A stretch of 64,000 nucleotides of DNA from an uncultured Gammaproteobacteria bacterium (GTDB lineage Bacteria > Patescibacteriota > Patescibacteriia > Veblenbacterales > UBA10138). The DNA is taken from the NCBI GenBank assembly GCA_964348825.1, contig CAYGDX010000002.1, positions 15,489 to 79,488 on the forward strand. Direction: 5' to 3'. The position numbers and the translations under genes are program-made. Positions 11,939 through 41,781 of the stretch are shown piece by piece; position 1 is the first letter of the stretch; each line of letters opens with the position of its first letter. The notes beneath the pieces were generated by a model that was not told the DNA's origin, did no database searches, and worked only from the letters and a program-made list of their open reading frames with translations.

Positions 11939-12290
11939 AAGTATATCTTATACCATCCAAAATAAAAACGCCATGTGATTTATAAATTTCTAATCTCTAT
12001 GAATGACTAAGGCGTTTAAATCCTAAACTCTAAACCCTAAATCCTAAACAAACCCAAAATTCTAAATTCAAATGCTTAAAACTTTTTTAGATTTTAGTCA
12101 TTAGGATTTATTTAGAGTTTAGATATTAGGATTTCGGATTTTTGAGGAATTGACCATCATTCTACTTTGCCCCACTACTTAACAAAAGACTCTTGCTTAC
12201 CAGATTTGACTCCAAACCTCTACCGTATTACGTTTAAAGTAAATAAAATACAAATCAATATTCATCAACAAAATAAAAAGGAATGCAAAA

Positions 12291-15077
12291 ATGACACATC
12301 GTTATTTAACATTTTTTACATCACTTTTAATTATTATTTTAACACTCACCGACACAAAAACTTTAGCGCAAACCACCACACCGTTTTACTATGATCGCTT
12401 TGACACCAATGCTTTCCAATTGGTCGGACAAACCACAACCAGTCGTGATCGCATTCGACTTACGCCCGCCCAAGGTAGTAAAAAAGGTGCTATTTGGGAT
12501 TCAACCAAACAAGTTGTAAGCAAACAATTCACAGTTACTTACAAACTTCAAACTAAATATCAAGATACTAGAACTCGCGGCGCCGATGGTTTGGCTTTTG
12601 TAATTCAAAACGAAAAAATTAATGCCATTGGCTACGATGGCGGTAGTATGGGCATCAACATTACAAATAGTGTGGCTTGGCCTTGGGATACTTACTATAA
12701 TGTTGAATATGGTGATCGTAATCGCTTTCACTTGTGCTTACTTACCCGTGGCACTTTAATCAACAACCCCAACCATACCAACGCAATTTTTACTAGTGGT
12801 AGTTTAGCATCCGCGCCTGATACTAATATTCATTTAATTCGCTTAACCTATAATTACGGCAAAATAAAAATTTATTTTGAAGATACTACGCAGGCGTTGG
12901 GTACGACTTATTTGAATTTAAACACTGAACTAAATTTGGATTCTGGCCGGGCTTGGGTGGGCTTTACTGCCGCCACCGGTGGAATTGGCTGGCAAACTCA
13001 TGATATATTATTTTGGTCGTTTGACACTTTAATCAGGCCTCTTCACGAACCAGTAATCATAATTGGCGGTATTATGACTTCCCCACTTTATGATTCAGAA
13101 GATAGCATACTACTTGCGACTGAAAAAATCTGGGCAGACAAAAATCATTTACTCGTACAGCGTGATGATTTTTTACAAGTACTGGAGCTTGCTTCCGACG
13201 GCATAAATCCAGCCCAAAGTAATTATCAAATTAAATTTCCACCCCTTGCCACTACTCCACAAATTCCCACCTTGCAAAATGAGTTAGCCCGTTTACCATT
13301 ATCAACTTATCAACCCTTAGTTCAAGAACTAACTTTACGTGAAAAATATGTCTTGGATAATGGCGATAGTGATCACGGTGAAATGGAAGATTTATTTATC
13401 TTCACTTATGATTGGCGGAAAAGTGCGCAAGTTAATGCTCAAAGATTAAATTTATTGGTGGATAGCGTAATTAAGTGGACAAATTATAACCAAGTAAAAA
13501 TCGTGGCGCACAGTTTAGGTGGTTTGATTACTAAATCTTATGTGGCAGAGTACGGTAGCGATAAACTATCACGAATTGTATTTACTGGCACACCACATTT
13601 GGGCGCGCCGAAAATGGGTTACGTACTTTTAAGTGGCGACCTGATGGGACTATTGGGGTTCGCTGTAAATCACGAAATGATTAAAAATTTAGCGCGAAAT
13701 TTTCCCAGTGCTTATGAATTATTACCCAGCGCTAATTGGTTTAATTTCAGCGGCAATGGCCAAACTTTGAATTCTAATTTATATGGACAATATTTAATAG
13801 CGTCTCGGCAAACTTTGAGTAATTATCCAGCGACGATGAATTATTTAGTCAGGCGACAATTAAATGATGCCGCGGAATTTAACTCGGCACTAATTAATTC
13901 AGCTATCACTAATCAAAACTCTTGGACCAATGTAAACTTTGGCGCTACGGAAATTTATAATGTAGTAGGTTGTAATTTACCAACACCGGGCAGTATTATT
14001 ATTACTTCAGCAAACACTGTACCAATACTTAATTTAAACGGTGATGGTACGGTACCACTTGGTAGTGCGGAAGGAATTAATGATAATTCACGCGCCACAA
14101 TTTATTTATCTAGTGTAAAACATGATGATTTGTGTGCGAATGAAACTGCTGTAAAAATTATAGCTAAATTATTACGCAAAGTAGCTGACACAGTAACGGC
14201 TGGCTACCCATTGGCAAGTACTGTACCGCCAACTAGTTACGGCATAAATACAACTGCTACGCGAGTTGGTTCGCCAGTACTACTCCACGCTTACGATGCC
14301 GAGAATAACCACACTGGCCCAATTAACGATACAACCTGGGAAGCGCAAATTCCGGGGTCAAGTTTTGTGAGCGGTCCTTTGAACGATCCTGAGGCCAGTA
14401 AAATTATTTTACTACCCGCTGGTCAATCTTATCGCACCACTATTACTAATTTACTTGATACGGTATCTAATTTTGATTTATGGTCGCAAAATAATAGTAG
14501 TAATAACGCACCGCAAATAGCCATCTTTAATAATTTAACTTTAGAGAATGGCTCGTCAGCCGCGCGGAGTGATATAAATGAAACCGCGAGTGATTTGGAA
14601 ATTGATCAAAATGGCGATAATGATTACGAAACGATTATTACACCCATTACCAATTTTTCTAAATTACTTGATTCGGGTTGGAATTTAGTTGCCCTGCCAC
14701 TTAAAACCGGAAATGACAGCTTGCTCTCAATTTTTCCAAGCACTCTGCCTTATGGTTTTAGGTTTAATGGGCAATACATATCGAGTGAACAACTTGATTC
14801 AACTAGTGGTTGGTGGATAAAAATTAAAAATGACAACGCAATTGATTTAATTGGACAAAATTTCGCCTTAGACACAATTAATTTAATTAGTGATTGGAAT
14901 TTAATCGGCATTGGTTCAAAGTCAAAAATCGCTACCGAACTCAACACTCTACCGAACGACTTACTCAACAGCCAGTTCTTTAAATACCAAAATGGTTACT
15001 CACCGACTGACACTTTGTACCCTGGCTTTGGCTACTGGATAAAAGCTAAGCAAGCGGGGCAAATAATCCTGCGTTAA
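12291..15077 (+). CDS. secreted L-type lectin domain / alpha-beta-hydrolase (LCAT/PGAP1-like lipase) fusion protein
   Basis: 928 aa with a signal peptide. N-terminal legume-lectin-like block (RIRLTPAQGSKKGAIW ... ADGLAFVIQ). Central lipase nucleophile-elbow motif VAHSLGGLI followed by FTGTPHLGAP. The C-terminal ~350 aa is unassigned. Confidence 0.65.
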   Translation: MTHRYLTFFTSLLIIILTLTDTKTLAQTTTPFYYDRFDTNAFQLVGQTTTSRDRIRLTPAQGSKKGAIWDSTKQVVSKQFTVTYKLQTKYQDTRTRGADGLAFVIQNEKINAIGYDGGSMGINITNSVAWPWDTYYNVEYGDRNRFHLCLLTRGTLINNPNHTNAIFTSGSLASAPDTNIHLIRLTYNYGKIKIYFEDTTQALGTTYLNLNTELNLDSGRAWVGFTAATGGIGWQTHDILFWSFDTLIRPLHEPVIIIGGIMTSPLYDSEDSILLATEKIWADKNHLLVQRDDFLQVLELASDGINPAQSNYQIKFPPLATTPQIPTLQNELARLPLSTYQPLVQELTLREKYVLDNGDSDHGEMEDLFIFTYDWRKSAQVNAQRLNLLVDSVIKWTNYNQVKIVAHSLGGLITKSYVAEYGSDKLSRIVFTGTPHLGAPKMGYVLLSGDLMGLLGFAVNHEMIKNLARNFPSAYELLPSANWFNFSGNGQTLNSNLYGQYLIASRQTLSNYPATMNYLVRRQLNDAAEFNSALINSAITNQNSWTNVNFGATEIYNVVGCNLPTPGSIIITSANTVPILNLNGDGTVPLGSAEGINDNSRATIYLSSVKHDDLCANETAVKIIAKLLRKVADTVTAGYPLASTVPPTSYGINTTATRVGSPVLLHAYDAENNHTGPINDTTWEAQIPGSSFVSGPLNDPEASKIILLPAGQSYRTTITNLLDTVSNFDLWSQNNSSNNAPQIAIFNNLTLENGSSAARSDINETASDLEIDQNGDNDYETIITPITNFSKLLDSGWNLVALPLKTGNDSLLSIFPSTLPYGFRFNGQYISSEQLDSTSGWWIKIKNDNAIDLIGQNFALDTINLISDWNLIGIGSKSKIATELNTLPNDLLNSQFFKYQNGYSPTDTLYPGFGYWIKAKQAGQIILR

Positions 15078-30807: not shown

Positions 30808-31305
30808 TCAAGCAATCTTAACTATTTTATAAATAACCTCTCCCAGAGTTGATTTTATTTTTACTACTTCCCCCACCCTCCGCCCAAGTAACGCTTGTCC
30901 AAGTGGTGAGTGGTGAGAAATAACACCAGTCGCAGGATTGGTTTCAATAGAGCCAAGTATTAAATATTCTTTTTGTTTACCACCGCTTTCCACTATGACT
31001 GTACAACCCAATTCCACTATCAAACTATTTTTTGATTGCTTAATAATTACTGCGCTGTTTAAATATTTTTCTAATTCTAAAATTTTTTGATTAACTGAAC
31101 GTAATTTCCCCTTCGCCATCGCGTAGCCAGCATTTTCCGAAAAATCACCCATTTCCCCGAGTCGCTTAACTTCTAGTGCTAAGCTCGGGTGACTTTTTTT
31201 TAACCTAACCAACTTATCTCTTAATTCGTCAAATTTGCCTTCCGTAAGATTGGGGTCAAGCTCGAGATTAGTATATTTCCCTGCTTTTCTAATTGGTGTT
31301 TGCAT
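30808..31305 (-). CDS. greA: transcription elongation factor GreA
   Basis: C-terminal ISHHSPLGQALLGRRVGEVVKI is the GreA/GreB signature. Start set at the internal Met (MQTPIRK) rather than the longer track ORF. Confidence 0.8.
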   Translation of the reverse strand: MQTPIRKAGKYTNLELDPNLTEGKFDELRDKLVRLKKSHPSLALEVKRLGEMGDFSENAGYAMAKGKLRSVNQKILELEKYLNSAVIIKQSKNSLIVELGCTVIVESGGKQKEYLILGSIETNPATGVISHHSPLGQALLGRRVGEVVKIKSTLGEVIYKIVKIA

Positions 31306-31355
31306 ATAACCATAGTATAGCAAAAAATAAGCAGACATGTGCTACAATATCAAAT

Positions 31356-33101
31356 ATGAAACTATTACTCTCCTATCTTAAAAAATACCGCAAAGTACTG
31401 CTCGGCACTTTGGTGCTGGCTACTATTAACCAAACCTTCTCTTTACTTGACCCGCAAATTTTTCGGCTGATTATTGATGGTTACGCAAGTCGCGCCACTA
31501 CTCTCCCCTTACAACAATTTTTAAGTGGTGTAACCTTACTACTCCTCGCGGCCATGGGAGTGGCTTTTGTATCGCGAGTGGCTAAAAATTTTCAAGATTA
31601 TTATGTAAATGTTATTACCCAAAAAATCGGAGCTGAACTTTATGGCCAAGCTATTACTCATTCTTTAGCCCTACCTTATAGCGTGTTCGAAGATCAACGC
31701 TCCGGTGAAATTTTACAAAAATTACATAAAGCCCGTAGCGATTCGCAAATTTTAATAGCGAGCTTCATCAATATTATTTTTCTGTCGCTCATCGGAATTT
31801 TATTTGTAGTGAGCTACGCTTTTACTGTGCACTGGTCAGTGGGTTTAACTTATTTATTAGTAATACCAATTTTAGGTACTACCACTTTTATAATTTCCCG
31901 CCGCATTAAAAAAGCGCAAGCAATAATTATTGCCGAAACAGCCGAGCTCGCTGGCTCAACCACTGAAACCTTACGCAACGTGGAATTAGTTAAAAGTTTG
32001 GGCTTAGAAAATCAAGAAACTAATCGCCTAAATGAAGTAAATAATTTAATACTGGCGCTAGAACTTAAAAAAGTAAAGCTAATTCGTAAACTAAGTTTTA
32101 TTCAAGGCACGCTTATAAACGCTTTGCGCTCGATTATAATGCTTTTAATGCTCTGGTTGATTTTTAGTCAAATTATTAGCTTAGGGCAATTTTTCACTTT
32201 ACTATTTTATTCATTTTTTATTTTTAATCCATTATCAGAACTAGGTAATGTAGCTTCGCAATACCAAGAAGCTAGGGCGAGTTTAGAAACTTTGGAAACA
32301 ATTTTAAATTTACCCAAAGCGGCAAAACCAACTCAGCCTAAATCCGCTCATCCAATTAAAGAAGTTTCTTTTTCTAAAGTTGATTTTAAATATCCTTCAG
32401 CTGATGTAAATTCTGTAACCGACATAACACTTAAAATAAAAAATGGACAAACTGTTGCACTTGTTGGACCTTCTGGCTCTGGTAAAACTACTTTAATTAA
32501 ATTGATGGTTGGATTATACCAAGCGCAAAGTGGCGCGCTGACAATAAATAATATACCAGCGAGCGAAGTGGATTATGATGATTTGCGGAAGCAGATGGGT
32601 TATGTTTCGCAAGACACTCAACTTTTCGCCGGCACGATTCGTGAAAATTTATTATTTGTACGACCTGAAGCCACCGACGCCGAATGTTTAGAAGCGCTTA
32701 AAAATGCTTCGGCCTTACCAATAATCGAACGGGGTGATAAAGGTTTGAATAGTAAAATTGGCGAGGGTGGTATAAAAATATCAGGCGGTGAACGTCAACG
32801 CCTCGCCATTGCTCGCGCGATTTTACGCCAACCCGAACTAATTATTTTTGATGAAGCCACTTCAGCTTTAGATTCAATTACCGAAAAATCCATTGCTGAA
32901 ACTATTCACGCCATTTCACATTCACAACCTAATCTTATCACGATACTAGTCGCCCATCGCCTCGCCACTGTTATCAAAGCCGATATTATTTATGTATTAG
33001 AAAAAGGTAAACTTGTGGAGCAAGGCAACCACAATGAACTTCTAAAACTAGGCGGCCTCTACACCGCACTCTGGCGCGAACAAGGTGGAGAAAATATATA
33101 A
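31356..33101 (+). CDS. ABC transporter, fused permease/ATP-binding (MsbA-like exporter)
   Basis: 6-TM domain, Walker A GPSGSGKTT, signature LSGGERQRLAIARA, Walker B IIFDEATS. Start set at Met 22 of the track ORF, because the upstream part overlaps greA. Confidence 0.8.
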   Translation: MKLLLSYLKKYRKVLLGTLVLATINQTFSLLDPQIFRLIIDGYASRATTLPLQQFLSGVTLLLLAAMGVAFVSRVAKNFQDYYVNVITQKIGAELYGQAITHSLALPYSVFEDQRSGEILQKLHKARSDSQILIASFINIIFLSLIGILFVVSYAFTVHWSVGLTYLLVIPILGTTTFIISRRIKKAQAIIIAETAELAGSTTETLRNVELVKSLGLENQETNRLNEVNNLILALELKKVKLIRKLSFIQGTLINALRSIIMLLMLWLIFSQIISLGQFFTLLFYSFFIFNPLSELGNVASQYQEARASLETLETILNLPKAAKPTQPKSAHPIKEVSFSKVDFKYPSADVNSVTDITLKIKNGQTVALVGPSGSGKTTLIKLMVGLYQAQSGALTINNIPASEVDYDDLRKQMGYVSQDTQLFAGTIRENLLFVRPEATDAECLEALKNASALPIIERGDKGLNSKIGEGGIKISGGERQRLAIARAILRQPELIIFDEATSALDSITEKSIAETIHAISHSQPNLITILVAHRLATVIKADIIYVLEKGKLVEQGNHNELLKLGGLYTALWREQGGENI

Positions 33102-33231
33102 ACCTTGACAATTTAGCTTGTTTGGAGTTAAATTTATCTATTCTTTAACAAACATTTACAAACCCGATTTAATTAAATCTAGGGAGAACTGTAAATAATA
33201 TATACCAATCAATTTTTAAAAAGGGAAAACC

Positions 33232-35001
33232 ATGATAACTAAATTATATGGACAACACAGTGGACTAAAATTTAAAGATTTAAACACCTTCAAACCATTG
33301 TGTGAACAAGCTGGAGCACGAGTAATTGAAAGTTTGGTTATAGGGGTGAATTACTTTGATAATTTCGTGAAAGAAAATGGACTCAACCCTCAAAGTACTT
33401 TCGAGCAAGCGAGCATCTCAAATATTACCACTGAACTATCAACTATTAATAAAGAGATACTAACTTCTCTGCCCAAAGAACGACCTCTAGCTCTTGCAAT
33501 ACGTTCATCAGAAATTTCTGAAGGTGGCGGTAGTGGTATTTTTGGCACAGAATTCTTAGTTTTACATGACACAAGCAATGCCGAAGAACTTCTCTGGCAA
33601 GCCGAGCTTAAAGTTTACTTGAGCGAATGGTCGCCTGACGCCCAAGCTTTCAGACAAAAACACAATCAACCAATGGGAATGGAAATAATGATCCAGATTT
33701 TACAGGGTCGTAATTTTGGTAATTATTTTGCCCCATTCTTAGCTGGAAGTGCTTATACATCTTACAATGGACAAGCTCTAATCAGAATTACATTCGGACT
33801 CGGCACAAGAGCGGTAAATTCAGACGCTACAGTAATACAAGGCAATGGACTCTTAAAAGATTGGAGCGTTTCATTGCTCAAAACCCAAACTATTGACGCG
33901 CTTAATCTAAACGGAGCAACCAATGGTTTTGAACAAATATCATTACCGAATGATTGGAAGAAATTTCTAACAGCCGAACCAATCTTGGAACTCCAACGTA
34001 TACTCAACTATCTTAGACAAAAAGGTGATTTTTATATTGAATGGTGTATGTCGGATTATTTCGGCTCTGATCTTACCATTCTTCAGATAGCGCCGTTCGA
34101 AGACAAGGAAACAAAGTCACTGAATATTGAATCTACGCCCGGTAAAGAACTGTGTAGTGGTACAGATATTGTTAATCATGGCGAAAAGGAATGTCAAATA
34201 ATTGTTCTGATTGATAATTGGCATAGTGAAAATAGATCGTGGCAACAAATGGTTAATAAACGCTTATCGAACTATGTTCTTATTTTACCGCAGACGGCTT
34301 TTACAAGTATGTCCCGAGAGTTAACAGTATCTTACGCAGATTTTTCTAATGCTAGCGTGCTGATTGAAAGCCAACACACAAATAGTCCAGTTGAAGAATC
34401 CTTACTTAGACAGCAAGGAATATCTGTGATAGATCACACTGAAAATAGAGGTGGTATGCATTTCCAGCAGGTTTGTTCTCGGGAAGATATTTTATTTCTA
34501 GGCGGATTCCTGCGTCGTGAATTATTTGCAAAACATGAACCATTTCTCAGCTACAATCGTGGTGGAGTAAAAATTTACAAAGTACCCACAAAAACAATCA
34601 ACGACACGACTTGTACGAAGGGTACAATTTATATGACTGGTGGATTTTTGTCAGCACCTAAATATTCATTTGAAGATATAAATCGCTTTGCTGAAATACT
34701 TTATGACACAGCTAGCTCAATCGAACGTGAAGCATCAGCCGATGGATCAGATTTAATTAAAAATTTGGTTAATTCTTTCTATACCATACACTTTGCTATT
34801 TTTAATGACGATCTAATAAATTTTGATCCTTTCAAAATTAACTGGGATACAGCTGAAGTAAATCCAGTAGATTTGATTAGCTATATTAATTTAGTTATAG
34901 AAAATGCCGAAATTTATGCCAAGGCTGATTCAGAAGAGTTGATAAGGGAAGGTGGTTTAATTGATTATTTAACTGAGCTGAAAACAAAAATATCAATCTA
35001 A
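33232..35001 (+). CDS. PEP-synthase/pyruvate-phosphate-dikinase N-terminal (PPDK_N, ATP-grasp) domain protein, no phosphohistidine domain
   Basis: 589 aa. LALAIRSSEISEGGGSGIFGTEFLV corresponds to VRSSAtaED..SFAGQ. FGLGTRAVNSD and DFYIEWCMSD ... ILQIAPF match the PPDK_N C-lobe. The C-terminal ~290 aa is unassigned. Confidence 0.55.
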   Translation: MITKLYGQHSGLKFKDLNTFKPLCEQAGARVIESLVIGVNYFDNFVKENGLNPQSTFEQASISNITTELSTINKEILTSLPKERPLALAIRSSEISEGGGSGIFGTEFLVLHDTSNAEELLWQAELKVYLSEWSPDAQAFRQKHNQPMGMEIMIQILQGRNFGNYFAPFLAGSAYTSYNGQALIRITFGLGTRAVNSDATVIQGNGLLKDWSVSLLKTQTIDALNLNGATNGFEQISLPNDWKKFLTAEPILELQRILNYLRQKGDFYIEWCMSDYFGSDLTILQIAPFEDKETKSLNIESTPGKELCSGTDIVNHGEKECQIIVLIDNWHSENRSWQQMVNKRLSNYVLILPQTAFTSMSRELTVSYADFSNASVLIESQHTNSPVEESLLRQQGISVIDHTENRGGMHFQQVCSREDILFLGGFLRRELFAKHEPFLSYNRGGVKIYKVPTKTINDTTCTKGTIYMTGGFLSAPKYSFEDINRFAEILYDTASSIEREASADGSDLIKNLVNSFYTIHFAIFNDDLINFDPFKINWDTAEVNPVDLISYINLVIENAEIYAKADSEELIREGGLIDYLTELKTKISI

Positions 35002-35011
35002 AAATCCATTA

Positions 35012-35048
35012 ACAATGGTTGTCAGAATTATTGACAACCATTTTTTAT
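35012..35048 (+). terminator. rho-independent terminator
   Basis: TGGTTGTCAGAATTATTGACAACCA with a 9-bp stem, followed by TTTTTTATTT. Confidence 0.75.
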
Positions 35049-35182
35049 TTATTAAAAATCACTCACATTAGACCCATCAACAAAACCTTGACAAAAACTA
35101 CAAATCATTTTAACTTGAGGTTAAGTTAAATAACAAAAATTTAAATAAACACTTCATTAACAATCAACCATAAAGAGGTCCT

Positions 35183-36409
35183 ATGGCAAATTCTCTAGGA
35201 TTAATCATTCCACCTGACTCAAAATCATTGCTGGTGCATTACCCTAATGGTAATTACGAAACTTACGGTGGAAATGACAGCAATCTAACTCTAAAAATCA
35301 AAGACGCCAAAATCATACCTTCAATATTACTCAACCCCAACCTTGGTTTTAGTGAAGCGTATATGAACGGTAAAATTGACTATTTTACTCCTGACGGCAA
35401 TCTTGATGAATTAATAAAATTATTTTTTAATTCGAATTTAAAAATAAAAAATAAAATTTTAGCATTGCCAGCTGTTATCGCTTGGTTTTTTAAACATCAA
35501 TGGTCGCTGATAAATAACAATCGAATTCTGTCGCGTAAAAATGTTACCCGGCATTATGATCATCCCAGCGAGCTTTATCAATACATGCTTGACCCTAACC
35601 AAACTGGTAACATTCAATACTCTTGTGCTTTCTTCCCCACTGCTGACTCAACTCTTGTTGAAGCTCAAAATCACAAATCAAAAGTCACGCTTGATAAATT
35701 AAATTTACAACCTGGCGACAAAGTGCTTGATATTGGTTGTGGATTTGGTGGGCTTGGTTTTTATGCCCTCAATAATTATCCTGGTATTACCTACTTTGGC
35801 ATCACCACTTCACCCAAACAATACCAATGGGTAATTCAAAAAATCGCTGAATTAAAAATACAGAATAGATTCTTTATTAAATTATTGGATTGGCGAGATT
35901 TAAGACCAGGTTACATCAATTATCCAAAGGGTTGGCCAGTCAATTTTGATAAAATTGTATCAGTTGGTATGTTTGAACATGTTGGTAAATATCAAAGCCC
36001 AAAATTCTGCCGGCTTTGTTATAAATTACTAAAAAGTGACGGATTATTTTTACTCCACACTATTGTACGATCATCACCGACCTTACTGCCTGATACGTTT
36101 GTTCTCAAATATATTTTCCCGGGCTCAGACATACCAGTTGATTATCGAATAATGGATTGGCTAAGTCGAGCTGAATTTAAACATTTGAGTAATGATCGCT
36201 GGGGTGAACATTACGCTCAAACCTTAATACACTGGCGTAATAATTTTAGAGAGTATTGGATAAAAATAATAGAACCAGCTTTTAGAATAATAAACTCAAA
36301 CAAAGATCCTGCCGTATTTAAACGGATGTGGGAATTATATTTAGCTGGCTCAATTGTTTGTTTTCAAACCAAACATCTAAACCTGGCTCAATTCTTGGTA
36401 AAAAAATAA
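35183..36409 (+). CDS. cfa: cyclopropane-fatty-acyl-phospholipid synthase family SAM-dependent methyltransferase
   Basis: 408 aa. RHYDHPSELYQYMLDPNQTGNIQYSCAFF is the CMAS N-terminal signature. SAM motif I is VLDIGCGFGGL. Confidence 0.8.
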   Translation: MANSLGLIIPPDSKSLLVHYPNGNYETYGGNDSNLTLKIKDAKIIPSILLNPNLGFSEAYMNGKIDYFTPDGNLDELIKLFFNSNLKIKNKILALPAVIAWFFKHQWSLINNNRILSRKNVTRHYDHPSELYQYMLDPNQTGNIQYSCAFFPTADSTLVEAQNHKSKVTLDKLNLQPGDKVLDIGCGFGGLGFYALNNYPGITYFGITTSPKQYQWVIQKIAELKIQNRFFIKLLDWRDLRPGYINYPKGWPVNFDKIVSVGMFEHVGKYQSPKFCRLCYKLLKSDGLFLLHTIVRSSPTLLPDTFVLKYIFPGSDIPVDYRIMDWLSRAEFKHLSNDRWGEHYAQTLIHWRNNFREYWIKIIEPAFRIINSNKDPAVFKRMWELYLAGSIVCFQTKHLNLAQFLVKK

Positions 36410-36428
36410 TGGTGTAATAAAATTTCCA

Positions 36429-36456
36429 AAGCTAATCAGAAATGGTTAGCTTTTTT
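36429..36456 (+). terminator. rho-independent terminator
   Basis: AGCTAATCAGAAATGGTTAGCT followed by TTTTTT, after cfa. Confidence 0.6.
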
Positions 36457-36538
36457 ATATACTTAATAAGAGCAATAATTAAAACAAGATGACCTCCACG
36501 GGCACTACAACGAGAATAGGATTAAAATAAAGAACGGG

Positions 36539-37180
36539 TTAAATAACTAAATGCTTTGAATATCCTAGATCCACTAACTTTTGATAAGTCGTCCAAACTA
36601 CTTCCGGCATTTCTTGTGGTATTTGAAAACCCATATCAGCATACAATTTAATTCTTTGGGTATCCCCTACCATAATATTAATCAACAACTCTTTGGAAAT
36701 AATATCATTAGGATATTTCTCAAAAGTCAGTTGTGGGCCAGTCGTTATGACATCTGATTCTGGCCAAAAATTTTTAAACGTAGCATAGGCCCGACGAAGC
36801 ATATACGGCTTCTGAACTAAAATGACTCTGTTAACAATCACCCCTTTATTCTTAAGTAAAGTTTTGGTGTAAGTAATATTTTCACCTGTGTTGGTAGCTT
36901 CTGACTCGATTAATATTTTCTCTTTAGGTACGCCTAGTTTAATAATTTCTTCGGCAAACACTTCCGCCTCTGACTTATTCCACATCCCCTTAGTTAACAC
37001 ACCAACCTTGCCGGAACAAACTACTAAGGGCGCATAACCTTGAAGAAATAACTCCGCTCCCCGCTCAGCGACCCTAATATCATTACTACACAAAACTAAA
37101 ATAACATCCGCTTGCTTAAGTGGTTGTTCAAATTTATTATAATCCCAAAGTGTTTGAGCTAATTTATCTATATGATTCAT
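36539..37180 (-). CDS. DUF218 (YdcF/ElyC-like) domain protein
   Basis: 213 aa. CSGKVG ... SEAEVFAEE ... ESEATNTGEN matches the DUF218 pattern. Confidence 0.65.
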   Translation of the reverse strand: MNHIDKLAQTLWDYNKFEQPLKQADVILVLCSNDIRVAERGAELFLQGYAPLVVCSGKVGVLTKGMWNKSEAEVFAEEIIKLGVPKEKILIESEATNTGENITYTKTLLKNKGVIVNRVILVQKPYMLRRAYATFKNFWPESDVITTGPQLTFEKYPNDIISKELLINIMVGDTQRIKLYADMGFQIPQEMPEVVWTTYQKLVDLGYSKHLVI

Positions 37181-37185
37181 AATTA

Positions 37186-37569
37186 TTAAACTTTTGCTTT
37201 AAAATCAACTTGATAATCTGGTATGCTCAAAGAAATACCGTATCGTTTAGCCTCATTGTATTGCTCTTGATTCCATATATCAATTAAGAAAACTTTATTC
37301 TGAAAAATTATGTAATGGTGAGCATCGTTTTTAAAATCAGCATACCAAGCACTCCCGTGACTGTAGTCTAAATTCTGGCTTAACTTCTGTGCCACATTAC
37401 TAGCCTGATCTTCGGGTATTTCTACTGTATGTAAGGTCCACTGCTTAAGCCAAGAAGTTTTATGTTTATCGGTAACTAACGATACCTTAGTAAATAAAAT
37501 TTTAAAGTCCTGTACTAAATTTTTATCCGCTAATGATTCTTCTATAATAACACCTTGGTAGTTAGACAT
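37186..37569 (-). CDS. hypothetical protein
   Basis: 127 aa ORF. No motif. Confidence 0.3.
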   Translation of the reverse strand: MSNYQGVIIEESLADKNLVQDFKILFTKVSLVTDKHKTSWLKQWTLHTVEIPEDQASNVAQKLSQNLDYSHGSAWYADFKNDAHHYIIFQNKVFLIDIWNQEQYNEAKRYGISLSIPDYQVDFKAKV

Positions 37570-37576
37570 ATAATTT

Positions 37577-38335
37577 TTATTTTCTAATTAAAGTGATTAA
37601 CTCCTTAAAGTCTGTTGATTTGCAAATTGATTCATAATAAACTCTTTCTTTTTTCTTAAACACTTTATGCGCCCCAGATTTATTTTTTGAAGTGATAACT
37701 CTAAATTTATCATTAATAATTTCCAGCGCACTAAAATCATCAAGTGCCACAGCAACCCCCGGTGTTTTTTTCATCAAATTAATTAGACCCACCCTTCTAC
37801 TTTGTTCTCTAAGGTGGTGTGGACTAACAGTCAAATTTACCAAGCCCAACCCCCGTACCCGCATGTAGTCCTTACTTTTACCCTTTTGAAAAAGACGTGA
37901 ATCACTTAAGCCATACCTAAACCAACAAATCGCACCCGCACTTAAACCTGACATAACTTTCCCCCTATTATACGCTTGCCTTAATAATTTATCAATACCA
38001 AAGCGTCGCCAAATTTGCATCATCTTCATAGTGTTTCCCCCACCAACATAAATTATATCTGCCCCAAGTATTTTTCGCGCTATAACTCTTTGTGATAAAA
38101 ATTCTTTCACTACACAAAGAGAATCAAAATAACAACCCAGCCTAACTGAAAAATGCTTTTTAGCGAGATCAATATATGTTTTAGAATCTTTACTCGCAGT
38201 GGGTATAAATAAAAATTTAGGATGCTTCTTACCTGACAATCTAATAATTTCCTTATCAATCGATGTGGTTTCTATTTGATAACCCTTCCGTCCAATCTCA
38301 CCACCACCAATCCCAATAATTTTACGAATAGGCAT
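37577..38335 (-). CDS. peptidase S51 family (dipeptidase E / cyanophycinase-like)
   Basis: 252 aa. IIYVGGGNT ... VMSGLSAGAICW places the Ser nucleophile in the SAGA context. Confidence 0.7.
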   Translation of the reverse strand: MPIRKIIGIGGGEIGRKGYQIETTSIDKEIIRLSGKKHPKFLFIPTASKDSKTYIDLAKKHFSVRLGCYFDSLCVVKEFLSQRVIARKILGADIIYVGGGNTMKMMQIWRRFGIDKLLRQAYNRGKVMSGLSAGAICWFRYGLSDSRLFQKGKSKDYMRVRGLGLVNLTVSPHHLREQSRRVGLINLMKKTPGVAVALDDFSALEIINDKFRVITSKNKSGAHKVFKKKERVYYESICKSTDFKELITLIRK

Positions 38336-38377
38336 ATAACAACTTAAAGGCTCGATAAAATTTTTTATATCATTAAC

Positions 38378-38947
38378 TTATAATTTTAACCCTGTCTGAG
38401 ACGACTCATTTAATTTATTATCAATAATTTTATAATACTTACTTACCCCAACTGCGGGTGGAGTCGAAAATGGATCATCTGACCTACGCTCAGCATAATT
38501 TACAATAATTAAATCATTTCTAAATTCCGTAGTTTGTGGCGCAATACGATCACCAATTAATAAAGCATTAGTGCCAATGAATTTGTCACCACTACTTACT
38601 AATGCCGCCAAATAATAAAACGTGCCACTACCGCCACTGATTTGGGTAAGCAAAAAAACGATATCTTTTATACCATCGTTATTAAAATCTCCTACTACAT
38701 CATTGCCAAAATATTGCGTAATTTTTTTAGATGCCCCATTGGTAGTTATCTCCTTCTCATTATAACCGCTTTTAAGCGTAATTTGTTCCCCGTCAATCAA
38801 ATAAGTGCTATTTTTTACATCTGTCTCGCTTATAGTATGAATATTTCCATCATCAACTGCGAAATTAAATTTATAAATTACCAAGCCAAATATAATAAAA
38901 ATCACCACTCCGATGGCAACACTAAAAAAAATTATAAGCTTATTCAT
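38378..38947 (-). CDS. secreted hypothetical protein (FG-GAP-like DFNNDGIKD motif)
   Basis: 189 aa with an N-terminal TM/signal helix. Confidence 0.4.
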   Translation of the reverse strand: MNKLIIFFSVAIGVVIFIIFGLVIYKFNFAVDDGNIHTISETDVKNSTYLIDGEQITLKSGYNEKEITTNGASKKITQYFGNDVVGDFNNDGIKDIVFLLTQISGGSGTFYYLAALVSSGDKFIGTNALLIGDRIAPQTTEFRNDLIIVNYAERRSDDPFSTPPAVGVSKYYKIIDNKLNESSQTGLKL

Positions 38948-39021
38948 AATTTTATAATAACAAAAAAACGCTTTAAAAGCGATTTTTATACAAATAACAT
39001 ATAAATCATTTTAAATCTATA

Positions 39022-39807
39022 TTAAGACAAAACATTAACCAACGCACGTTGAATAATTTTATTATTGCAAGCAATAAATGTTGGAACATTTTCATTTATC
39101 AATTTATCACCTTTAAAATCAACTACTAAAGCCCCCGCCTCTTTGGCAATCAACCTACCGGCTAAATAATCGTATTTATTATTATGATCACTAACCACCG
39201 CTTCAATTTTACCAGACGCTAATAAACAAAAATCAAAAGCTGGTGACCAACAACTTAAAAACCTTTTTATTTTTATACCACGCATTTGTTTTACGACCAC
39301 TATTTCACGTGAATAAGCTACCCCATAACTACAAGAATAAGCTACGGTGGCATGATTAATATCGTGAACAGAATTAACAGATAATTTTTTACTCCCAAGA
39401 TATGCGCCATGATTTATCTCGGCACAGTACATCTGTTTTAAAAAAGGTTGATATACAACAGAATGAGTTGTAATATTATTTTCTTGCAAAGCTATGGCTA
39501 CGGAAAAGTTAGGTATTCCAATAACAAAATTATTTGTGCCGTCAAGCGGATCAATAGTAAATGTATAACTAGATTTTTTATTTATTAAACCACATTCTTC
39601 GGAAAAAATATTATAATCGGGGAATTCTTTTTCTAATATACTTATTATTGCCCGTTCCGAACCAATATCGGCTTTAGTAAAAAAATCTGATGCTGTTGAT
39701 TTTTGGACTGATTGCAACCCCTTACCAAAATATTTTTGCACTACAAAACCTCCGGCTCTAGCCGCTTTAATCATCTTCTTTGTAATGACTGACTTATATC
39801 TCAACAT
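39022..39807 (-). CDS. inositol monophosphatase family protein (SuhB/CysQ-like)
   Basis: 261 aa. FTIDPLDGTNNF and the WSPAFD-type second motif. Confidence 0.8.
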   Translation of the reverse strand: MLRYKSVITKKMIKAARAGGFVVQKYFGKGLQSVQKSTASDFFTKADIGSERAIISILEKEFPDYNIFSEECGLINKKSSYTFTIDPLDGTNNFVIGIPNFSVAIALQENNITTHSVVYQPFLKQMYCAEINHGAYLGSKKLSVNSVHDINHATVAYSCSYGVAYSREIVVVKQMRGIKIKRFLSCWSPAFDFCLLASGKIEAVVSDHNNKYDYLAGRLIAKEAGALVVDFKGDKLINENVPTFIACNNKIIQRALVNVLS

Positions 39808-39918
39808 AATAATATTATAACATAAAAATATCTAAAGCTATCCACTTTTAAATCGACTCTTTGATTCCTCCTTATTTTTATATCAAAGGAAAAAATCCCA
39901 CCATAAAGGTGAGATACT

Positions 39919-40106
39919 TTGCCTTGGCAGGGGGTGAAGGAATCCTCTTCCCCCAAAATTTAGCAACGCTTTAGCGTAAGCTAAATTTTTCCTCCAAAAC
40001 CCGGGTGTTTAAAAATCTAAAGCAGTTTAGATTTTTAAACTACCCTTCGATTCCTACCTTCACCACATTCAAGAAAAGAGCGCTTCCAAAAATCGGAACC
40101 GCTCTT
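39919..40106. repeat. tRNA-3'-end-linked repeat unit 1 (starts with 21-nt copy of the tRNA-Trp 3' end)
   Basis: TTGGCAGGGGGTGAAGGAATC, then CTCTTCCCCCAAAATTTAGCAACGC and onward. It matches the 62886..63010 element next to tRNA-Lys at roughly 90%. Confidence 0.75.
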
Positions 40107-40286
40107 TTCTGGCAGGGGGTGAAGGAATCCTCTTCCCCCGTCGTGCTCGAAGACTCGCACTCCTCCGCCAGAACCCGGCGCCCGTTGCGACTGCCACTAG
40201 GCAGTCGGTCGGGTCGCCTTCGATTCCTCTGCCATCTCTACATACCAAGATAAATCACCCCACCGTGAAGGTGAGGTGATTTATCT
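40107..40286. repeat. tRNA-3'-end-linked repeat unit 2 with ~95-nt GC-rich structured insert
   Basis: Starts with the same 20-nt tRNA-Trp 3'-end copy followed by CTCTTCCCCC. It then diverges into a roughly 65% GC segment (40135..40235) that contains the perfect hairpin CGACTGCC-ACTA-GGCAGTCG. Confidence 0.7.
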
Positions 40287-40360
40287 TGGCAGGGGGTGAA
40301 GGAATCGAACCCACGCTAGAGGTTTTGGAGACCCCTGTACTACCATTATACTAACCCCCC
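40287..40360 (-). tRNA. tRNA-Trp (anticodon CCA), CCA encoded
   Basis: Hand-folded. Acceptor GGGGGGT/ACCCCCT, anticodon stem GGGGT/ACCTC with loop CTCCAAA, T-loop TTCGATT. The T-stem has one mismatch. Confidence 0.7.
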
Positions 40361-40374
40361 ATAAGTAGGCGCAC

Positions 40375-40530
40375 CTACTTCGTTTCTTTATGCATCGCGT
40401 GCTTCTTGCACCATTCACAATGTTTTTTCAATTCCAAACGTGTTTTCACTTTCTTCTTATTACGGAAGGTGTGATAATTGATGCGGTGACAAGCACTGCA
40501 TTCCATTTTTATAAGATTATCTTGAGACAT
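40375..40530 (-). CDS. rpmG: 50S ribosomal protein L33
   Basis: 51 aa, below the ORF-track cutoff. MSQDNLIKMECSACHRINYHTFRNKKKVKTRLELKKHCEWCKKHAMHKETK has the C4 zinc ribbon and typical L33 spacing. Confidence 0.85.
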   Translation of the reverse strand: MSQDNLIKMECSACHRINYHTFRNKKKVKTRLELKKHCEWCKKHAMHKETK

Positions 40531-40584
40531 AATATTAGAAATAATAAATAATAAAAATCATTATTACAAGCTTCGGTTTTTACA

Positions 40585-40660
40585 TGGAGCCGATGGTCGG
40601 GTTCGAACCGACGACCTACGGTTTACAAAACCGTTGCTCTACCAGCTGAGCTACATCGGC
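40585..40660 (-). tRNA. tRNA-Thr (anticodon UGU)
   Basis: GCCGATGTAGCTCAGCTGGTAGAGCAACGGTTTTGTAAACCGT ... GGTTCGAACCCGACCATCGGCTCCA, cloverleaf folded by hand. Confidence 0.85.
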
Positions 40661-40661
40661 G

Positions 40662-40749
40662 TGGTGGGTGGGATAGGATTCGAACCTATGAAGCCACGAG
40701 GGCAACTGGTTTACAGCCAGTCACGTTTGACCACTTCGTTACCCACCCC
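40662..40749 (-). tRNA. tRNA-Tyr (anticodon GUA), long variable arm
   Basis: GGGGTGGGTAACGAAGTGGTCAAACGTGACTGGCTGTAAACCAGTT ... GGTTCGAATCCTATCCCACCCACCA. Confidence 0.8.
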
Positions 40750-40775
40750 TACAAAAACATAATTTCTCCACCCTG

Positions 40776-40848
40776 AGCCGTTGATCGGAATTGAACCGAT
40801 GACCTACTCCTTACCATGGAGTTGCTCTACCAGCTGAGCTACAACGGC
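40776..40848 (-). tRNA. tRNA-Thr (anticodon GGU)
   Basis: GCCGTTGTAGCTCAGCTGGTAGAGCAACTCCATGGTAAGGAGT ... GGTTCAATTCCGATCAACGGCT. Confidence 0.8.
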
Positions 40849-40875
40849 TCAAGGGGGACAAAAAATAATTACACT

Positions 40876-41781
40876 TTATTTAATAGACAATTTAATAGAC
40901 ATTTTTTTGTTTCTTTGGCGATTTGTTAAAGCTCGAATCGCTTGCGCAAAATCTGCTATTTTTTGATTATCTGGATTAGTATCTTTTAACCTATTTAAAG
41001 CTTCCTGTGCTTCAATTAGGTGCCCATTTACTATACTGAGTTCAATAAAAAAGTCAAGTACTTTTGGATTATTTGGCTCGAGCGCGCGTGCCGCTGTCAT
41101 TTGTACTAAAGCACCCTCACTATCACCCAAATCTTCCAAAACATGGGCTAGCTCTAATCTTATTTCCAATGAATTATTAAATACTAAACTCTGCTCAAAA
41201 GCTGCGCGCGCTTCATTTAACAATCCTTGCCCCAAATTCGCTCGAGCTAAATTAAGATAAGCTGAGTTATCACCCTTAGTTATTAAATACTCAAGCACCT
41301 CGCGCGCTGGTTCAAAATCACGCTTCGCTAAATAAACTTCAGCTAAACTTTGGTAAAATTCTAAACGACTGGGCTCTTTAGCAATCGCATCAAGTAGATA
41401 CTGCTCGCTTGATTCATAATTACCCGCCTTAAGTGCCTTAATTGACTTTGATTTTAATTCGGTAGCCGCTACTTGGGGCGACAATTTATGTTCAATTTCC
41501 GCCACTAATTTATTTTCCAACCCTTGCCAATATTTATTGGCATTTGGTTTAGTTATTTTTGATACTGGGGTAGAAATTTTTTTGGTTAGGGTTTGTACAA
41601 AACTACGTGCACTACGCATTAAACGCATTTGAACTAATTTGTGTTTAACTTCTTGCTGGTTAATATCGACTACCAACTTAGGATTAATCAATTTTAAAAT
41701 TGACCACTTGCGCCATAATAACCCAAGTAGGCCTAATATTCCGAGCCAAAATAAAATACCTAAAATCAAATCTAATCCCAT
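40876..41781 (-). CDS. TPR-repeat protein with N-terminal membrane anchor
   Basis: 301 aa. N-terminal TM helix, then 4-5 TPR-like repeats (AEVYLAKRDFEPAREVLE ...). Confidence 0.5.
   Translation of the reverse strand: MGLDLILGILFWLGILGLLGLLWRKWSILKLINPKLVVDINQQEVKHKLVQMRLMRSARSFVQTLTKKISTPVSKITKPNANKYWQGLENKLVAEIEHKLSPQVAATELKSKSIKALKAGNYESSEQYLLDAIAKEPSRLEFYQSLAEVYLAKRDFEPAREVLEYLITKGDNSAYLNLARANLGQGLLNEARAAFEQSLVFNNSLEIRLELAHVLEDLGDSEGALVQMTAARALEPNNPKVLDFFIELSIVNGHLIEAQEALNRLKDTNPDNQKIADFAQAIRALTNRQRNKKMSIKLSIK

Follow-up and report, generated by a model that had tools for sequence, protein, structure and literature searches.

An uncharacterised dikinase-like protein and a predicted cyclopropane-fatty-acyl-phospholipid synthase appear to be independent neighbours in a Patescibacteria-group genome

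The stretch of DNA analysed here is a 64-kb window of contig CAYGDX010000002.1 (GC content 36.7%; all coordinates below are positions in this window), in which two adjacent plus-strand genes encode a 589-residue protein with a PPDK_N ATP-grasp domain and a 408-residue methyltransferase of the cyclopropane-fatty-acid (CFA) synthase family (cfa). An initial annotation of this DNA had placed both open reading frames (ORFs) exactly where we find them (33232-35001 and 35183-36409) and had suggested that they form a cassette modifying a lipid or a small molecule, which our comparisons do not support. We consider it fairly probable that the two genes are independent, that the PPDK_N protein is a three-domain phosphotransferase of dikinase type encoded by an accessory gene, and that the methyltransferase is a catalytically complete phospholipid Cfa.

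A rare family with an intact ATP-grasp domain

In the first protein Pfam recognises PPDK_N at 40.7 bits (cutoff 27) over residues 58-296. The two motifs that the initial annotation quoted for this domain do occur, IRSSEISEGGGSGIFG spanning residues 90-105 and EWCMSDYFGSDLTILQIAPF residues 270-289. Searches of Pfam, NCBIfam, PADLOC and PHROGs with the full protein, its C-terminal half and 38 family members returned PPDK_N alone, plus a trivial 20-bit match to RedH; the last ~290 residues have no Pfam match, and PADLOC and PHROGs gave none for the protein and four relatives. A word-indexed search of 5.8 billion proteins found three relatives only. An exhaustive profile search recovered 74 proteins at E<1e-30, of which about 40 are 575-630 residues long and match end to end. 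The closest relative (P0002, at locus L001) is 40% identical. Where such proteins are named in databases they are labelled hypothetical protein or 'PEP/pyruvate-binding domain-containing protein'. The PPDK_N protein is therefore not alone: it is a member of a real, rare family.

We aligned 38 family sequences, which are 23-39% identical to the window protein. Residues K13, R91, S92, G102, E270, Q285 and H410 are invariant in this alignment, H402 and C415 recur in at least 90% of its members, and conservation extends to the last helix. The first six invariant residues sit in GxK, RSS, EW and VQ motifs that align with the ATP-site motifs of phosphoenolpyruvate (PEP) synthase PpsA. The ATP-grasp invariants of the family also correspond to Lys22, Arg117 and Glu297 of rifampin phosphotransferase (RPH), which position ATP and Mg according to mutagenesis or structure (PMC4844700). 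Hence the protein has the Lys and Arg that bind phosphate and the Glu and Gln of the Mg site by which the PF01326 ATP-grasp domain is known in the superfamily of PEP synthase (PEPS), pyruvate phosphate dikinase (PPDK) and RPH. The gene and its domains are as follows.

33232-35001, plus strand: dikinase-like phosphotransferase of the PPDK_N family, uncharacterised subfamily, 589 residues (predicted)
33232-34131, plus strand: ATP-grasp nucleotide-binding domain, residues ~1-300, with invariant K13, R91, S92, E270 and Q285
34144-34641, plus strand: predicted cryptic swivelling beta/beta/alpha domain of phospho-carrier type, residues ~305-470
34459-34461, plus strand: codon of His410, candidate phospho-carrier histidine and sole invariant residue of the C-terminal half among the 38 members
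34654-34998, plus strand: predicted C-terminal helical domain, residues ~475-589, with conserved Y517 and an FDPF motif

As a side observation, many 'PPDK_N-only' proteins of ~500 residues (e.g. P0188, P0194, P0197 and P0211) match the family profile up to position ~386-390, a stretch that comprises the ATP-grasp domain and the first half of the swivel-type domain and in which Pfam sees PPDK_N alone. There may be a broader range of dikinase-like architectures that lack annotation.

A predicted carrier domain and a helical third domain

Structure prediction with AlphaFold2 (AF2) on the 38 sequences gave a pLDDT of 90.4 and a pTM of 0.87, compared with a pLDDT of 50 for a run on three sequences. 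In Foldseek searches of the Protein Data Bank (PDB) the model matched PEP synthase first (2ols, E 2.6e-12), then RPH, HpeI and PPDK; LdcA and aconitase X, which are other swivelling beta/beta/alpha proteins, scored in the same range. A fold search of BFVD returned generic ATP-grasp matches only. From the Foldseek matches to the AF2 model, residues ~305-470 are predicted to have a phospho-carrier fold, that is, the fold of PF00391, with a ~25-residue insertion and the motif DHTxxRGGxHFxxxCxRxDILFLG. The view of the initial annotation that the protein lacks a phospho-histidine domain thus holds for Pfam and profile hidden Markov models (HMMs) but not for the fold, and its ~290 'unknown' residues, although blank in Pfam, are modelled as this carrier-type domain followed by a helical one.

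We propose His410 as the equivalent of the canonical catalytic histidine. In the model it stands at the N-terminal end of helix 409-417, preceded by Arg-Gly-Gly and followed by the hydrophobic strand 421-427 (ILFLGG), surroundings that mirror the canonical GG-x-T-S-H-AAIVARE-x-GIPAVVG; the order of secondary structure elements and the shared pattern of GG-x-H, Arg and a hydrophobic strand ending in Gly are the basis of this assignment.

The final ~115 residues form a helical bundle in the AF2 model, for which sequence and fold searches gave no informative match, the fold matches being to non-specific helical bundles. This bundle stands where PEPS and PPDK have the PEP/pyruvate-binding TIM barrel, PF02896, for which there was no Pfam match, in agreement with the earlier statement that a PEP-binding domain is absent. 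It may serve to bind the acceptor or to oligomerise the protein. With a cryptic carrier domain and a third domain that has no known relative, the protein would be more complete than first described.

Proposed mechanism and alternatives

The best explanation of these features is that the PPDK_N protein is a self-contained three-domain phosphotransferase of the PEPS/PPDK/RPH superfamily in which the helical C-terminal domain replaces the PEP/pyruvate TIM barrel. ATP would bind the ATP-grasp domain; His410 would attack the beta-phosphate, with release of AMP and Pi; and the carrier domain would then swivel to hand the phosphate to an acceptor at the C-terminal domain or its interface. The phospho-histidine chemistry is postulated by analogy with PEPS, PPDK, RPH, HpeHI and GWD (PMC4844700; PMC12167813). 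Because the TIM barrel is absent, the acceptor is presumably not pyruvate, and the protein would be an 'X, water dikinase'.

Comparison with characterised enzymes places the protein nearest to PpsA and PPDK. In common with these it has the ATP-grasp domain first, the swivelling carrier second and conserved ATP-site residues, and PEP synthase is both its best Foldseek match and the subject of the only significant profile alignment (hhalign of the family against E. coli PpsA: probability 97.5% over PpsA residues 23-465, driven by the ATP-grasp domain). It differs in having ~115 helical residues in place of the TIM barrel, in a carrier domain that has diverged past detection by Pfam or HMMs and holds the ~25-residue insertion, and in its length of 589 residues as against ~790-880. 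RPH is ordered as ATP-grasp domain, RIF-binding domain of ~440 residues and C-terminal swivel with His825 (RPH-Lm; PDB 5HV1, 5FBS; PMC4844700). The initial annotation had likened the PPDK_N protein to this layout, and the class of mechanism is probably the same, but the ~860-residue RPH order is not found: the swivel is central, as in PPDK and PEPS, and the small third domain bears no relation to the RIF-binding domain. No PADLOC family matched the protein, and no resistance-gene library was searched. The HpeHI, or phenylphosphate-synthase, type of two-component dikinase performs His-mediated phosphotransfer to a non-pyruvate acceptor (PMC12167813), and HpeI (9goj) ranks near the top of the structures that match our ATP-grasp domain. 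In that type the ATP-grasp domain and the swivel-plus-substrate domains are on two polypeptides within catabolic clusters; the PPDK_N protein has all parts in one chain and no pathway neighbours. Lastly, VadK (Rv1127c) of Mycobacterium tuberculosis, which evolved from PPDK according to its authors' phylogeny, has no PEP/pyruvate domain and autophosphorylates on His (PMC13400623). Our likening of the PPDK_N protein to VadK follows its description and not its sequence or fold; the window family adds the helical C-terminal domain and occurs in Patescibacteria-type genomes.

By analogy with these enzymes there are two main options for the acceptor, a small molecule as for RPH and HpeHI or a protein, in a regulatory role as for VadK. 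On the first option, the family would be a single-chain small-molecule dikinase with a novel helical acceptor-binding module, which in ultra-small episymbionts would inactivate by phosphorylation an antibiotic or toxic metabolite of hosts or neighbours. This would explain a strain-variable single gene and its repeated nearness to varied exporters (see next section), though in so specific a form we regard the idea as tentative and rather unlikely. The strain-variable presence, a lineage with an in-frame stop codon and the recurrence of exporters of unrelated types do lead us to lean towards an accessory, possibly detoxifying role.

On the second option, to which we give a similarly low probability, the protein would be a regulatory histidine autokinase acting with partner proteins, the C-terminal domain serving for protein contacts. 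The truncated logic of an ATP-grasp domain and a carrier without TIM barrel is that of VadK, the small, all-helical C-terminal domain has no obvious match to a pocket-forming fold, and the gene has no conserved enzymatic neighbour. However, neither variation between strains nor a lineage in which a stop codon truncates the gene is expected of a housekeeping regulator. The family is also very rare and patchily distributed, and no candidate partner is conserved nearby.

Several observations weigh against the proposed phosphotransferase as a whole. First, no sequence-level method recognised PF00391 in the middle domain at any threshold. Searches of PDB sequences by phmmer and profiles with the full protein, the middle domain or the C-terminal domain gave nothing meaningful; hhalign gave no signal for the middle domain, whether set against E. 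coli PpsA or against an alignment of seven genuine carrier domains, nor did it after in silico excision of the presumed insertion 381-405 alongside control deletions. Second, the PpsA alignment described above sets the catalytic His421 opposite V388, a non-conserved residue on an extra helix (386-394) that we read as insertion, and not opposite His410. Third, H402, C415 and H410 could form a metal site instead. Fourth, the C-terminal domain could be no more than an oligomerisation module.

The first three points, together with the absence of the Thr-Ser dipeptide found immediately ahead of the catalytic His in most of seven aligned canonical carrier domains, would fit a swivel-like domain that has lost its carrier role, its conserved His/His/Cys trio being metal-binding or structural and the protein being an ATP-grasp ligase or kinase, or an ATP pyrophosphatase. 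We consider this improbable: one histidine is strictly invariant across such divergent sequences, it lies in the canonical arrangement at a helix N-terminus after Gly-Gly and ahead of a hydrophobic strand ending in Gly, and the ATP-grasp-then-swivel order of PEPS and PPDK is kept.

Genomic linkage of the two genes

The PPDK_N gene and cfa belong to a plus-strand island of three genes, the first of which encodes an MsbA-like exporter and ends 130 nt upstream of the PPDK_N gene. Besides the PPDK_N gene listed above, the island contains the following features.

31356-33101, plus strand: MsbA-like ABC exporter, a half-transporter of 581 residues (ABC_membrane and ABC_tran)
33101-33111, plus strand: direct repeat AACCTTGACAA, left copy, 11 bp, containing a -35-like TTGACA
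33105-33134, plus strand: promoter-like site upstream of the PPDK_N gene, with a TTGACA -35-like box
35014-35042, plus strand: terminator-like hairpin after the PPDK_N gene, 12-bp stem plus T run
35084-35094, plus strand: direct repeat AACCTTGACAA, right copy, 11 bp, with the -35-like box upstream of cfa
35183-36409, plus strand: methyltransferase of the cyclopropane-fatty-acyl-phospholipid synthase family, 408 residues (cfa)
36428-36453, plus strand: terminator-like hairpin after cfa, 11-bp stem

More than 30 kb around the island is otherwise minus-strand; the initial annotation had noted this setting correctly but, in calling the pair the only adjacent plus-strand genes, had left out the exporter. 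A terminator for each gene, as it had claimed, is suggested by the two hairpins, and a TTGACA promoter-like box lies upstream of the PPDK_N gene and of cfa alike. No terminator-like site was found between exporter and PPDK_N gene. The exporter scores 356 bits against the MsbA model TIGR02203, under the model's cutoff. Its mechanical ORF, with a TTG start at 31293, shares sequence with the 5' end of the minus-strand gene greA (30808-31338); the database form of 581 residues starts at the ATG at 31356, so there is no real overlap.

Two contigs of close relatives, which we reached through a relative of the methyltransferase in its 90% cluster, decided the question of linkage. In both L009 (GCA_964360795.1) and L010 (Hainich groundwater) the exporter gene is followed after 98 nt by cfa, without a PPDK_N gene in between. 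By blastn, L009 306-2039 corresponds to window 31355-33088 at 88.5% identity and L009 2054-6992 to window 35084-40021 at 97.6% identity, which puts the breakpoints at 33088 and at 35084, where homology picks up again. The unit missing from L009 and L010 is 33101-35083 (1,983 bp) and consists of the promoter-like site, the PPDK_N gene and the terminator-like hairpin. The AACCTTGACAA repeats flank this unit in the window, and each copy holds the -35-like box of its promoter-like site.

We compared the loci of P0002, P0003, P0124 and P0132 and 17 metagenomic loci. All-against-all clustering of the neighbours at these loci revealed no conserved neighbour of the family gene, and among 103 neighbouring proteins scanned with Pfam there was no CMAS (methyltransferase domain) gene adjoining it. 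Thus, in ~14 family loci other than the window, neither a CMAS gene nor any conserved gene is a neighbour. Exporter genes lie within 4 kb of the family gene in 5 of ~14 distinct loci, compared with one ABC ATPase in the whole window. Their types vary, from MsbA-like in the window to ABC-2 (L020), MacB with an HlyD-like protein (L026) and an ABC exporter (L008). As this is at most a weak enrichment statistically, we do not rely on it.

Since the close relatives keep exporter and cfa without the PPDK_N gene, since neither a CMAS gene nor any other neighbour is conserved at the other family loci, and since each gene carries its own promoter-like site and terminator-like hairpin, the PPDK_N gene and cfa appear to be independent genes and not a working cassette. 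The PPDK_N gene would be accessory and strain-variable; the conserved neighbour of cfa in the close relatives is the upstream MsbA-like exporter. A joint modification of a lipid or small molecule by the two proteins, for example phosphorylation followed by methylation, could draw on the adjacency of the genes on one strand in the window strain and in three other assemblies of that strain, where the three-gene arrangement recurs with a 100% identical PPDK_N protein, and on the lipid-type ABC exporter that both adjoin. The comparative data largely refute it, and the strong hairpin and separate promoter-like site between the genes and the self-sufficient look of the methyltransferase add to its very low probability. 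Two points weigh against our account of the locus: the promoter-like and terminator-like calls are consensus matches alone, and the indel could be either a gain in the window strain or a loss in its relatives. The proposal, raised as an alternative with the initial annotation, that the PPDK_N ORF is a decayed pps/ppdK fragment, as its lone Pfam domain and missing TIM barrel might suggest, has next to no probability and is refuted by about 40 full-length homologues sharing its architecture through to the last helix, by a confident fold prediction across all 589 residues, by intact ATP-site residues and by a reading frame that is identical in four assemblies.

The data do not support a mobile-element origin of the 1,983-bp segment: it carries neither a transposase nor inverted repeats, and its composition is not anomalous (GC 36.6% versus 36.7% for the window; GC3 28%, like its neighbours). 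In tblastn searches the PPDK_N protein had no match in plasmid and phage collections. Identity to L009 is 83-95% in the exporter gene and 87-100%, mostly >94%, to the right of the indel (150-nt windows). Left of 31341 synteny with L009 is gone, with greA in the window and unrelated sequence in L009. Lower identity in the exporter and absent homology beyond it make the left edge of the island look like a recombination breakpoint in a recombination-prone spot. An inositol-monophosphatase-family gene lies downstream on the opposite strand both in the window (39022-39807) and in L001, the locus of the 40%-identical relative (12235-13011), the two being 35% identical. This is a weak hint that the PPDK_N gene has long occupied this position and that the L009 lineage lost it through recombination between the repeats. 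A Peptidase_S51 gene is also found near the family gene in the window (37577-38335) and in L002 (12489-13055), and the shared inositol-monophosphatase and Peptidase_S51 neighbours may be a remnant of microsynteny.

Other variation was seen in the region and at relatives' loci. Some 5 kb from the PPDK_N/cfa locus, the tRNA/rpmG region (window 40021-40892, L009 7040-9158) has two extra small genes in L009, of the 23S_rRNA_IVP family and PDDEXK_5, without counterpart in the window, and appears to be another strain-variable spot. P0124 (L011 15-12726) lies among hypothetical genes, beside a large serine recombinase (Resolvase, Recombinase and Zn_ribbon_recom) and a PycTM-domain protein, surroundings such as mobile elements or defence islands typically show; it is the sole relative near a serine recombinase. 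The family gene of a Candidatus Saccharibacteria metagenome-assembled genome is interrupted at codon 492, just past the swivel-type domain, by an in-frame TAA, and two independent assemblies (L008 7959-9746 and L018 7728-9515) show the identical stop. This copy could be a decaying gene or a natural truncated form without the helical domain.

A deep-branching Cfa

The assignment of the second protein to the CFA-synthase family in the initial annotation is upheld by matches to CMAS (PF02353, 236 bits) and to the N-terminal DUF7884 (PF25371, 41.9 bits).

Residues 15-85 of the 408-residue methyltransferase, plus strand: DUF7884 lipid-binding-type N-terminal domain
Residues 117-404 of the same protein, plus strand: CMAS catalytic domain

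Its top NCBIfam matches are the Brucella-type and E. coli-type CFA synthases, with 245 and 232 bits, well below the equivalog cutoffs of 600 (NF053839) and 400 (NF008686). The protein is thus a CFA-family member but not an equivalog of the Brucella or E. coli Cfa. Among PDB entries the CFA synthases of Aquifex, Lactobacillus and E. coli match best and the mycolic-acid enzymes rank below them, and alignment to 6bqc, 7qos and 5z9o begins at residues 18-37, so that the two-domain architecture is present. C148 and I294 align with Cys139 and Ile268 of the E. coli enzyme, which we take to be residues of its bicarbonate site. Likewise, E265, H292 and Y344 align with Glu239, His266 and Tyr317, the bicarbonate ligands of E. 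coli CFA synthase (PMC11387697), and the bicarbonate-site residues are all kept. Like the E. coli-type Cfas of known structure (6BQC, 7QOS, 5Z9O), the protein combines these residues with the two domains and the SAM (S-adenosylmethionine) motif VLDIGCGFGG; unlike E. coli Cfa, it has an insertion of ~11 residues before the DKIVSVGMFEH segment.

Its nearest non-self relative among the 5.8 billion proteins is 36% identical, and identity to known CFA synthases is 32-39%. In a pairwise matrix and neighbour-joining tree, the Cfa clades of E. coli, alphaproteobacteria and Aquificae are mutually 35-40% identical. Because these clades are comparably distant from one another, the methyltransferase looks like one more deep branch and not an aberrant one. 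The initial annotation had raised tight clustering with housekeeping Cfa as a possibility; the methyltransferase is no farther from such enzymes than their clades are from one another. The best explanation is a deep-branching, catalytically complete phospholipid Cfa, whose function would most likely be the ordinary cyclopropanation of unsaturated acyl chains in membrane phospholipids, presumably scavenged. A point against this is that cyclopropanation and the alternative fates of the carbocation, such as methylene or methyl branching, are not separable by sequence. The locus of the best methyltransferase match, P0005, is of housekeeping type and unremarkable.

Implications

Adjacency in a single genome was misleading here, and two close relatives settled the linkage of the two genes. 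The window Cfa is notable for its host, an ultra-small groundwater bacterium with a Patescibacteria-group genome, and for following, in the close relatives as well, an MsbA-like exporter gene. Members of the same 90% protein clusters bear the NCBI name 'Patescibacteria group bacterium'. Bacteria of the candidate phyla radiation (CPR) are reported to be unable to synthesise their own membrane lipids (bioRxiv 10.1101/465690). A group deficient in lipid synthesis would nonetheless carry an enzyme that edits acyl chains, beside a lipid-type ABC exporter.

For the PPDK_N family, the predicted carrier and acceptor domains escape the domain libraries now in use. If the proposed mechanism holds, the swivelling-histidine enzymes of the PEPS/PPDK/RPH superfamily extend to a compact form of 590 residues. 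To our knowledge, the accessory genes of Patescibacteria are almost entirely uncharacterised, and knowledge of the acceptor could bring to light a novel activity in these bacteria, be it in resistance, detoxification or regulation.

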